Shown: positions 16,946 to 33,161 of the stretch, piece after piece
How the letters are laid out: every line of letters begins with the position of its first letter
Numbering within the stretch: position 1 is the stretch's first letter
Assembly (NCBI RefSeq): GCF_003334815.1
Contig: NZ_QOWO01000002.1
Origin: Escherichia coli
GTDB taxonomy: Bacteria; Pseudomonadota; Gammaproteobacteria; Enterobacterales; Enterobacteriaceae
Strand: one strand, 5' to 3'
Length of the DNA: 64,000 bases
Notes under the pieces: model-generated
Told to the model about the DNA's origin: nothing
What the model saw: the letters and a program-made list of their open reading frames with translations, nothing else
Database searches by the model: none
Made by a program: the position numbers and the translations under genes

Positions 16946-16947
<2 letters not shown>

Positions 16948-16976
16948 AAAAAAGCCCGTCCAGTGGCGGACGGGCA
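16946..16976 (-). terminator. Intrinsic terminator (reverse strand, after ybiJ/REP cluster; may also act on hcxB)
   Basis: GCCCGTCC...GGACGGGC hairpin preceded on + strand by A8 (U8 on reverse strand). Confidence 0.65.
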
Positions 16977-17054
16977 AACAAGGGTAACATAGGATCAATG
17001 AGGGTTAGAGCATATGCGTCTGTCGGCAAACAGACAGGGAAATACTTGTGCTGG

Positions 17055-17172
17055 ACGTAGCGTAAACGCCTGATCCGTCCAACGGTTCGGATTTTGTAGG
17101 CCTGATAAGACGCGGTAGCGTCGCATCAGGCATCTGTTGCCGGATGCGGCGTAAACGCCTTATCCGTCCTAC
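17055..17172. repeat. REP (repetitive extragenic palindrome) cluster between hcxB and ybiJ
   Basis: Repeated GCCTGAT...CGCATCAGGC and TGCCGGATGCGGCGTAAACGCCTTATCCG units. Confidence 0.8.
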
Positions 17173-24991: not shown

Positions 24992-25140
24992 GACTCCTCC
25001 AGTGAGAAAATAGAGCAAAAAGATAAGTATAGATGCTGGAGGAGGGGCGATTTTAAATGAGAGGAATCTGGTGTGCCTCCCTTTCGGGTGAAAGGGAGGA
25101 AGGGATATTAAGCAGGTTGCTGACAACGTGCGGGCTTTTT

Positions 25141-25243
25141 TGCCGGATGCGGCGTGAACGCCTTATCCGTCCTACAAGTTCATGCAATTTTAATAAGTTG
25201 CCAGATATCCTGTAGGCCTGATAAGCGTAGCGCATCAGGCAAT
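25141..25243. repeat. REP pair between glnQ and ybiO
   Basis: TGCCGGATGCGGCGTGAACGCCTTATCCGTCCTACA ... TGTAGGCCTGATAAGCGTAGCGCATCAGGCA. Confidence 0.8.
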
Positions 25244-25251
25244 GTGTCTTA

Positions 25252-27918: not shown

Positions 27919-28566
<648 letters not shown>

Positions 28567-29608: not shown

Positions 29609-29960
29609 CCTTTCTCCCACAAATATCTAGACTTAAGTAAAGCGTGGAGTGTACTGGATATACCCAATGCTGGTTGAGCATTTGTTGAAAAAATTTTCCC
29701 CCGTTTTGACTAAAATGCGCCAGGATTGATGGAATCATTAGTCTGGTGATTAGGAATAATCTGGATGAATGACAGGGAAAACATGCGTAATACTTACGCA
29801 GTTCTCTGAAAAAGTGATTTAAATTTAGATGGATAGCGGTGTATGGAAACGTTCTGTTACATGAAATGGCCCGTTAGACATCACAAATCGCGAAGAGTTT
29901 CCCATTAATTTTTGATATATTTAAAACTTAGGACTTATTTGAATCACATTTGAGGTGGTT

Positions 29961-30526: not shown

Positions 30527-32108
30527 AAGGTTTCGGGTCGAAAATATCGGTTCCGAGATGGTTGTAATCCACCTTCTGTAACTGGAAGTTGGTGATGTAT
30601 ATCGGCCCGGCTTTCTTCTCAGATATAAACGGGTATTTGATGTTAATTTCCTTCGCTTTAATCCCCGTCCACTGGGAGAAAAAGCCTAAGAAGTCATTGG
30701 CTGAGCGGCGGGCTTTAATCACACGATGCGCTTTATCGTCGCTGGAAATGACCATAAAAGGCACCTGGAAATTTTGCTGATATTTATCATCATGGGCAAG
30801 GTATTGCACGTCTTTACCGCGCTCTTTAAAGGCCAGACCGTGGTCAGAAAAGTAAACCAGCGAGAAGCTGCTGCCGCTGTTGCGTAACTGATCGTACAGC
30901 TTGCGCAGTAAATCGTCCGTTTGCGTCATGGTATAGAGATAGCACGACGTTTCTTTCGATTGCACAAAGGTTTCGTATTTTCCTTGTGTCCTGTCGCAGG
31001 CCTGCGGATGTGAGCCCATCAGATGTAGAACAATCAGCTGCGGTTGCGAGTGCTCTTGCGCCAGCACTTGAGCGGTCATATCCAGTAACGCTTCGTCTTT
31101 GGTGTTTTTATCTGCTTCAAAATTACCTTCTTTCAGGAAGTACACTTCATCTGCTCGTTTGGCGATGCTGGCGATAGCGGTATCGTATTCGCCGATTTGA
31201 CCCTGGTTGGAAAACCACCAGGTCTGGAAGCCCGCGCGATTTGCCAGGGTGACAAAGTTATCCTGAAACTGTGGTTTGCCATCGACAACGCGATTGAGCG
31301 TTAAGCCAAGCGATTTCTGCGTGGAGCCACTGGCGGCAATGTAGTCAGCAAATATCAAACCGTTAACGCTGCTGGCAAACGGGGTATTGTCCCAGTGACC
31401 GCCAAAGGCACCGAGGGCATCGCGACGCGCGCTTTCACCGATCACCACCACATAGGTCTGATACTTCGGCTTAACGGCAGTGACCGTCCAGGTATCTTTC
31501 ATTCCGGAAAGTTTTGCCATCCGTTCTTGCTCTTCAATCACCTCGTTATTATTGACGATGACATCCTTAGCAAAACGAAATACCGGATAGCCAGTATCTT
31601 TCAGTTTAAATACGCCACCCCAGGCCAGGTTTTGCACGGGAGCAACAAAAAATGTCGCCACACTGAATACCAGACACAGGCTGTCGAAGGTATTCCAGCG
31701 CGCTTTTTCATTCTCTTTTTTTCGCCTGATTGCTATTACGCCGAGCGCAAAAATAAATAAGCCGACCAGGTAGCTGTACCACGGAAAAATCGTCAGGATT
31801 TCGGTCGACTCTTCCATATTGGTGGAGTGCAATGCCAGCAATGTATTGAAATTAGGCGCGCCGTAGGCCTGAGCAAAAGGGAAATAACAAGCCGCCACCA
31901 GCGAACTGACACCGACCAGAACTTTTTGTACGCGAGGCAATGTTCGCCATAGCAAAAGCAAAATAGCCGTAAACGCAGCGGTGTAGAGCAAACTGAAGGG
32001 GTAACCTAAGCCGAGGTTAATTAATAGCGACTGTAAAAAGTAGAACGCAGTCCACGGGCTAAATACCCGGCTACGGGTAACAAGCGATTCTTTGAGGGTT
32101 AAATTCAT
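30525..32108 (-). CDS. opgE: Phosphoethanolamine transferase for osmoregulated periplasmic glucans OpgE (YbiP)
   Basis: ORF track 527 aa; N-terminal TM helices plus sulfatase-like periplasmic domain. Confidence 0.9.
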   Translation of the reverse strand: MNLTLKESLVTRSRVFSPWTAFYFLQSLLINLGLGYPFSLLYTAAFTAILLLLWRTLPRVQKVLVGVSSLVAACYFPFAQAYGAPNFNTLLALHSTNMEESTEILTIFPWYSYLVGLFIFALGVIAIRRKKENEKARWNTFDSLCLVFSVATFFVAPVQNLAWGGVFKLKDTGYPVFRFAKDVIVNNNEVIEEQERMAKLSGMKDTWTVTAVKPKYQTYVVVIGESARRDALGAFGGHWDNTPFASSVNGLIFADYIAASGSTQKSLGLTLNRVVDGKPQFQDNFVTLANRAGFQTWWFSNQGQIGEYDTAIASIAKRADEVYFLKEGNFEADKNTKDEALLDMTAQVLAQEHSQPQLIVLHLMGSHPQACDRTQGKYETFVQSKETSCYLYTMTQTDDLLRKLYDQLRNSGSSFSLVYFSDHGLAFKERGKDVQYLAHDDKYQQNFQVPFMVISSDDKAHRVIKARRSANDFLGFFSQWTGIKAKEINIKYPFISEKKAGPIYITNFQLQKVDYNHLGTDIFDPKP

Positions 32109-32379
32109 ATGCCACTATCGTAACAAACGCCATGTGCTTACCCTGGCGTCAAGGGTCAATACCTGCAAGAGTGCGTGAAGAGTGGAAAGGGGTCCGCATC
32201 CGCGAGCCGCAATATACGCAGGGCTGCAAGAAGATAGAGCGAGCCGCCGTTCAGGTCAACTACTGACGAACAAATCTTTTGCGAAGGGGATTGCAAATCC
32301 GACAAAAAGTGGGGTTTTTCAGACCAAAACGCGTTATGCCTGCATGAAAGCAGGAGTGAAGCGGCGTACCGCGACGCCG

Positions 32380-32508
32380 CTATTTATCGGAAGGTTTATC
32401 TTGCTGCGGTTTGTTGTTGACCATATCGCACAACATAGAGAGCAGCATTAACCGTACTTTAAAGGGAGAATGACTAAACACGCGCATACACCTCTTGAAC
32501 TCATTCAT
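32380..32508 (-). CDS. mntS: Small protein MntS (42 aa), manganese homeostasis; corresponds to rybA transcript
   Basis: Not in ORF track; manual reverse-strand translation gives MNEFKRCMRVFSHSPFKVRLMLLSMLCDMVNNKPQQDKPSDK*; MntR-type palindromes upstream. Confidence 0.85.
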   Translation of the reverse strand: MNEFKRCMRVFSHSPFKVRLMLLSMLCDMVNNKPQQDKPSDK

Positions 32509-32566
32509 AAGACCTCCTGACTTGCTAATCCCGTCGATCCTTGAGGGATGATTGCATTACATACAG

Positions 32567-32598
32567 ATATAGCACAGGCTATATTATATAGCTATTGC
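32567..32598 (-). promoter_or_regulatory. MntR operator(s) in mntS promoter
   Basis: ATATAGCACAGGCTATATTATATAGCTATTGC: ATAGC...GCTAT palindromes between divergent mntS and mntR. Confidence 0.65.
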
Positions 32599-32693
32599 TA
32601 AAACGTTAATTTTTTGTACCTTCGCAACTCTGGTTTACAATGTGCGCACGAAATGAGAACGCTATGTATGCGTCACCATAATGAGGAAGCACA

Positions 32694-33161
32694 ATGAGTC
32701 GTCGCGCAGGTACGCCAACAGCAAAAAAAGTGACGCAGTTAGTGAACGTGGAAGAGCACGTTGAAGGGTTCCGCCAGGTCAGAGAGGCGCATCGGCGCGA
32801 GCTTATTGATGATTACGTTGAGCTGATTTCTGACTTGATCAGGGAAGTGGGGGAAGCTCGTCAGGTGGACATGGCTGCTCGTCTGGGAGTTTCGCAACCG
32901 ACGGTGGCTAAAATGCTTAAGCGGCTGGCAACCATGGGGCTGATTGAAATGATCCCCTGGCGTGGCGTGTTTTTAACGGCAGAAGGAGAGAAGCTGGCGC
33001 AGGAAAGCCGCGAGCGACATCAGATAGTCGAAAATTTCTTGTTGGTGTTGGGCGTCAGTCCGGAAATCGCCCGTCGCGACGCGGAAGGCATGGAGCACCA
33101 TGTTAGTGAAGAGACGCTCGACGCTTTTCGTTTGTTTACCCAGAAACACGGTGCCAAATGA
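32694..33161 (+). CDS. mntR: Manganese-responsive transcriptional regulator MntR (DtxR family)
   Basis: ORF track 155 aa; stop overlaps ybiR start. Confidence 0.95.

Follow-up and report, generated by a model that had tools for sequence, protein, structure and literature searches.

A 42-codon reading frame on the minus strand at positions 32380..32508 of the window (the whole 64-kb stretch of Escherichia coli DNA that was analysed) is, by its sequence, MntS, a small manganese-homeostasis protein of E. coli that has been characterised before. The locus as a whole is almost certainly the mntS (rybA) gene, repressed by MntR and coding for a product that inhibits MntP. The sequence-only reading had given the frame the name mntS, and the name was right: the identity follows from a match to the NF033226 equivalog, the RefSeq annotation of identical DNA, synteny and purifying selection across seven genera, all of which agree. 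The mntS locus has already been described completely and is annotated in RefSeq, and there is nothing new biologically in it.

Reading frame, family and conservation of MntS

In an ORF listing with a minimum length of 20 aa, the mntS CDS occupies 32380..32508 (-), with an ATG start, 42 codons, a TAG stop and the product MNEFKRCMRVFSHSPFKVRLMLLSMLCDMVNNKPQQDKPSDK. This is letter for letter the 42-aa reverse-strand frame that had been proposed beforehand, and it was missing from the ORF track solely because the default cutoff is 60 aa. The NCBIfam MntS equivalog NF033226, which is titled 'manganase accumulation protein MntS' and carries a curated, whole-protein cutoff, is matched at 96 bits (cutoff 36; E = 6.3e-28), over model positions 1-40 of 41. 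No match was obtained when the 42-aa protein was scanned against Pfam-A, and the label PF26599:MntS is attached to MntS homologs as a precomputed Pfam annotation.

Across 32200-32700 there is 100% identity between the window and E. coli K-12 MG1655 (K-12 coordinate = window + 820489), where mntS is b4705, formerly considered the sRNA gene rybA, and is nested in a 340-nt ncRNA feature still bearing the latter name (852725..853064). The K-12 locus and that of the window share the same DNA, product, neighbours (opgE, mntR and ybiR) and MntR boxes, with zero differences between them, whereas the surrounding window diverges. Over the first 32 kb of the window, 125 differences from K-12 MG1655 are spread across 32000 aligned positions, with the length unchanged; the window comes from an E. 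coli strain other than K-12. The region is carried by 5422 of the 5426 complete E. coli genomes (megablast, query 32100-32800), and the best 12 of the 5422 records are 100% identical, derive from human isolates and are annotated with opgE, mntS and mntR.

A search among 5.8 billion proteins retrieved 136 MntS relatives, nearly all of 41-43 aa, and those with a named source belong to the Enterobacteriaceae (Citrobacter, Salmonella, Klebsiella, Kosakonia, Kluyvera, Enterobacter and Trabulsiella). The gene order ybiR-mntR <> mntS-opgE also occurs in contigs of Salmonella, Citrobacter, Klebsiella, Kosakonia, Kluyvera and Enterobacter. Conservation counts here and below refer to an alignment of seven genera, comprising E. 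coli and six other genera. In all seven the protein is 41-43 aa long, and the dN/dS values range from 0.05 to 0.18 (Nei-Gojobori; computable for 20 of the 21 genus pairs). Variable columns are distributed over the three codon positions of the mntS ORF as 15/7/30, which is a coding pattern, and the one internal indel, of 6 nt in Kosakonia, preserves the frame. Judged from the alignment, the ORF is under purifying selection as a protein. A core of the form MNE(F/L)KRC..VFSHSPF(K/N)VRLML..M(L/I)C(D/E) is near-invariant in the seven genera, a PF motif with Pro15 lies within its conserved N-terminal part, and Cys7, His13, Cys27 and Asp/Glu28 are kept in all seven.

Promoter, MntR boxes and transcript ends

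The rybA/mntS transcript, mapped onto the window by identity from the K-12 annotation, extends over 32236..32575 (-), with a G at 32575 as its 5' end and a leader of 67 nt between this annotated end and the ATG. A Shine-Dalgarno sequence, AGGAGG, can be read at 32513..32518 (-), 4 nt ahead of the ATG at 32508, and its GGAG/GAGG core is kept in 7/7 genera. The putative -10 element of the mntS promoter, TATAAT at 32583..32588 (-), is situated 7 nt ahead of the annotated 5' end. A weak -35-like TTAACG, next to an A-tract, is separated from it by a 15-bp spacer. A generic promoter and terminator scan missed the mntS promoter and gave no mntS terminator in E. coli; the promoter was placed by means of the annotated 5' end and TATAAT, and the terminator by means of the conserved hairpin described below.

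Two copies of the motif ATAGC-N4-GCTAT flank TATAAT. Box 1, ATAGCACAGGCTAT at 32569..32582, is exact and covers the annotated transcript start (-7 to +7), and its inverted repeat extends to ATATAGC-N4-GCTATAT at 32567-32584. Box 2, ATAGCTATTGCTAA at 32588..32601, has one mismatch and lies at -26 to -13. These positions relative to +1 are based on the RefSeq rybA feature and assume that the annotated 5' end is the true start. The ATAGC...GCTAT palindromes noticed in the sequence-only reading are real, although the copy at 32588-32601 is imperfect and ends 3 nt past the 32567-32598 region to which they had been assigned. Thirteen of 14 columns of box 1 and 12 of 14 of box 2 are invariant in the seven genera. 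Both boxes form part of a conserved promoter/operator block at 32556..32619, which also includes the -10, the A-tract, TTAACG and the transcript's initial 20 nt, and in which 53 of 64 columns are invariant with a mean identity of 0.967 across the seven genera, compared with 17/63 in the adjoining intergenic DNA and 12/51 in the remainder of the 5' UTR. The MntR sites and the 5' end of mntS were reportedly mapped by Waters et al. and by Yamamoto et al. in 2011.

Allowing for one mismatch or fewer, the motif occurs three times in 64 kb against an expectation of 1.39, a number which 14 of 100 shuffles reach and which is unremarkable. Of the exact form, the window has two copies where 0.04 would be expected, and 0/100 shuffles reach two. 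The other exact copy, ACATAGCCGGTGCTATAC at 28472-28485, precedes the dps start codon (28422, -) by 50-63 bp and overlaps TATACT, a -10-like hexamer. The published MntR miniregulon includes dps (Yamamoto et al. 2011, as cited in PMC5553809), and both exact copies in the window are thus found on the promoters of MntR-regulated genes. The motif was tested on the K-12 promoters of other genes reported to be MntR-regulated, where 0.11-0.15 copies per 5-kb locus would be expected by chance. One exact box, the 22-bp palindrome AAACATAGCAAAGGCTATGTTT, lies upstream of mntH, and mntP is preceded by the exact ACATAGCTTAGGCTATAT and the imperfect, single-mismatch TTTAGCCAAAGCTATGTTT. The operators of mntH, mntP and dps have their core in common with those of mntS, with a consensus of about A[C/T]ATAGC-N4-GCTAT[G/A]T and A/T-rich extensions. 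The 'MntR-type' label that had been given to the palindromes is borne out by this shared motif upstream of mntH, mntP and dps and by the footprint in seven genera, and the segments 32569-32582 and 32588-32601 are supported as predicted MntR operators of the E. coli type.

The arrangement of the boxes differs among these genes. mntP, like mntS, combines an exact box with an imperfect one, and box 2 of mntS resembles the imperfect mntP box TTAGCCAAAGCTAT. The centres of the mntS boxes are 19 bp apart, on either side of the -10, an arrangement suited to repression, whereas the mntP boxes are 40 bp apart and lie upstream of a long riboswitch leader, and reviews describe mntP as induced by MntR. 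A single box each was found for mntH and dps within the stretches searched, compared with two at mntS.

The mntR gene, which codes for the Mn-sensing regulator, is divergent from mntS and lies 186 bp away, at 32694..33161 (+). Its 155-aa ORF matches the NF008273 equivalog (269 bits, cutoff 153) and is annotated as mntR. The hexamer TACAAT at 32636-32641 (+) is invariant in the seven genera within otherwise scrambled intergenic DNA and is a candidate -10 for mntR. A -35-like TTGTAC (32614-32619) is found 16 bp upstream of it, in the conserved block and beside MntR box 2, a placement which makes autoregulation of mntR by MntR a possibility.

At the opposite end of the gene, a G+C-rich hairpin at 32360..32381 (-) overlaps the mntS stop codon. 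It has an 8-bp stem and a 6-nt loop, with a fold of -13.8 kcal/mol, and 17 of its 20 aligned columns are invariant in the seven genera. The hairpin is probably the first terminator, or otherwise a determinant of the 3' end. In Citrobacter, Klebsiella, Kosakonia and Enterobacter, four of the six other genera, the sequence after the hairpin is UUCAUUUU(U); in Salmonella it is CUUAUUUU, and Kluyvera has no such tract. In E. coli the tail after the hairpin is the U-poor UUCACUCCUGCUUUC, so that the U-tract is eroded in comparison with species having UUCAUUUUU, and from these alignments the E. coli mntS terminator looks weakened. Northern blots have revealed several read-through RybA species, from 205 nt up to some 400 nt long, and the erosion of the U-tract in E. 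coli may be the reason for the multiple longer species. Counted from the annotated 5' end, the hairpin ends after approximately 216 nt, which does not agree with the shortest published transcript of 205 nt.

A small stem-loop is also present in the mntS leader of the seven genera, at 32528-32549 (-), where CCCUC pairs with GA(C)GGG to give 5 pairs around the loop AAGGAUC, which is SD-like. Compensatory changes occur at two of the five pairs and 94% of the cells are paired; 18 of 500 shuffles do equally well, which makes this weak evidence. Together with the lost U-tract of E. coli, the stem-loop could point to MntR-independent regulation of mntS/RybA translation or of read-through to opgE, or to the seed of a dual-function RNA, none of which is considered at all probable.

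Function of MntS and alternative readings of the locus

From the arrangement of the locus and the published work, a sigma-70 promoter on the minus strand, with TATAAT at 32583-32588, would drive a short mRNA from about 32575. When Mn2+ is sufficient, an Mn2+-loaded MntR dimer would bind the two ATAGC-N4-GCTAT boxes; since these flank the -10 and cover the start site, bound MntR would be expected to occlude RNA polymerase and silence mntS. Under Mn scarcity the boxes would be unoccupied and MntS would be produced, bind the MntP exporter and block Mn efflux, raising intracellular Mn. Promoter occlusion agrees with the published results for mntS. Lack of translation and lack of Mn-dependent regulation had been named in the sequence-only reading as grounds for abandoning the gene, and the literature already answers on both: passages of PMC4361602, citing Waters 2011, describe tagged chromosomal MntS as detectable under Mn limitation and mntS transcription as repressed by MntR:Mn. 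Furthermore, a PmntS-egfp fusion responds to Mn only with mntR present (PMC9806134), and MntS was found to bind and inhibit MntP (bioRxiv 10.1101/2023.06.02.543501, later Mol Microbiol 2024), the protein studied there being identical to that of the window.

An unlikely alternative, though one with published backing, is that the RybA RNA itself is a regulator which lowers aroF/aroL under peroxide stress independently of the peptide, making the locus dual-function. The K-12 annotation retains the 340-nt ncRNA rybA across the mntS ORF, Gerstle et al. 2012 described TyrR-dependent repression of aroF/aroL (as cited in passages of PMC4361602 and PMC11878033), and Martin et al. did not regard their own data as excluding an sRNA role. 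The leader could be counted on the same side, with its invariant first 20 nt and its small stem with two compensatory changes; these 20 nt are, however, invariant because the operator overlaps them. The predicted fold of the 340-nt RybA is no more stable than that of shuffled sequences (z = 0.00), and a search of 31900-33000 against Rfam at a permissive E-value returned neither RybA nor any other relevant family, only a chance snoRNA elsewhere (E = 0.78). Beyond the operator overlap and the terminator hairpin, 12/51 and 2/36 columns of the UTRs are invariant, whereas the ORF has the codon-position pattern, and conserved structure in RybA is restricted to the terminator hairpin and the weak 5-pair leader stem. 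The Mn phenotypes also speak for the peptide, in that a frameshift at Phe11 or Phe16 abolishes the phenotype of MntS overproduction, which is Hfq-independent, according to the portion of PMC4361602 dealing with these mutants.

That MntS delivers metal or acts as a manganese chaperone instead of inhibiting MntP is very improbable, even though the Mn chaperone was the original hypothesis for MntS (as related in passages of PMC4361602). The conserved Cys7, His13, Cys27 and Asp/Glu28 count in its favour, as does the self-association of MntS, which takes place solely with Mn present (bioRxiv 10.1101/2023.06.02.543501). It is contradicted by the findings that the toxicity of MntS needs MntP and is gone when the unrelated exporter MneA replaces MntP, and that MntS and MntP form a complex in two-hybrid assays and reciprocal pull-downs (bioRxiv 10.1101/2023.06.02.543501). 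Finally, the ORF and palindromes could be chance features of AT-rich intergenic DNA, as the count of the motif with one mismatch is insignificant (3 vs 1.39) and there are 243 start sites of small intergenic ORFs in the window. This reading has a negligible probability, being refuted by the excess of the exact motif (2 vs 0.04), the phylogenetic footprint, dN/dS values well below 1 and the NF033226 match.

For MntS as an MntR-repressed inhibitor of MntP, an origin has also been proposed. Wright et al. trace MntS back to the signal peptide of a SitA protein linked to MntR, as found in Rahnella and Sodalis, and such descent would, by the same authors' argument, be the reason for its divergent position relative to mntR (bioRxiv 10.1101/2023.06.02.543501). 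Like MntS, the SitA signal peptides are 40-45 aa long, have a PF motif with Pro15, are divergent from mntR and bind MntP, and the invariant SHSPFKVRLML core of MntS fits the published description of these signal peptides. MntS has neither an AXA cleavage motif nor the mature domain of SitA, and it is less hydrophobic. The enterobacterial small proteins KdpF, AcrZ, MgtS and SgrT resemble MntS in being shorter than 50 aa, induced by a specific stress and bound to a larger membrane transporter, while their families and targets are unrelated to those of MntS. MntS is predicted to be largely soluble, in contrast to the single transmembrane helix of other small regulators of transporters.

Small genes in the window

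Across the whole window, the K-12 annotation contains three CDSs shorter than 60 aa, namely mntS, yliM and ybiE, as well as the ncRNAs rybA and zbiJ. The remark made in the sequence-only reading, that other ORFs below 60 aa would be hidden from the ORF track, was well founded given the annotation of yliM and ybiE. The former (29843-29908, +) codes for 21 aa, is intact and is located upstream of ompX; the latter (17014-17073, +) codes for 19 aa, is likewise intact and overlaps the antisense sRNA gene zbiJ (16946-17042).

The same reading had called for a scan for small ORFs with scoring of ribosome-binding sites. ORFs of 10-59 aa in the 6.8 kb of intergenic DNA were scored for anti-SD pairing over 243 start sites, and MntS took third place at -10.9 kcal/mol, with YbiE 13th and YliM 51st, the pairings of the latter two being weak. 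The top-ranked candidate (25057-25215, 52 aa), with GAGGAGG ahead of it, is probably no gene and runs through REP elements. The second, an out-of-frame ATG at 32504, borrows the MntS Shine-Dalgarno. As the first is a likely REP artefact and the second shares its SD, MntS has the strongest SD signal among the plausible genes. The REP-type repeats crossed by the 25057-25215 frame, gccggatgcggcgtgaacgccttatccg and an inverted copy, lie between glnQ and ybiO (25040-25251).

An ORF cutoff of 60 aa hides real, functional genes, with three of them annotated in this 64-kb window alone. A scan combining SD pairing with cross-genus conservation by codon position places MntS among its highest-ranking candidates, and the mntS locus is a good positive control for callers of small ORFs and of operator motifs.
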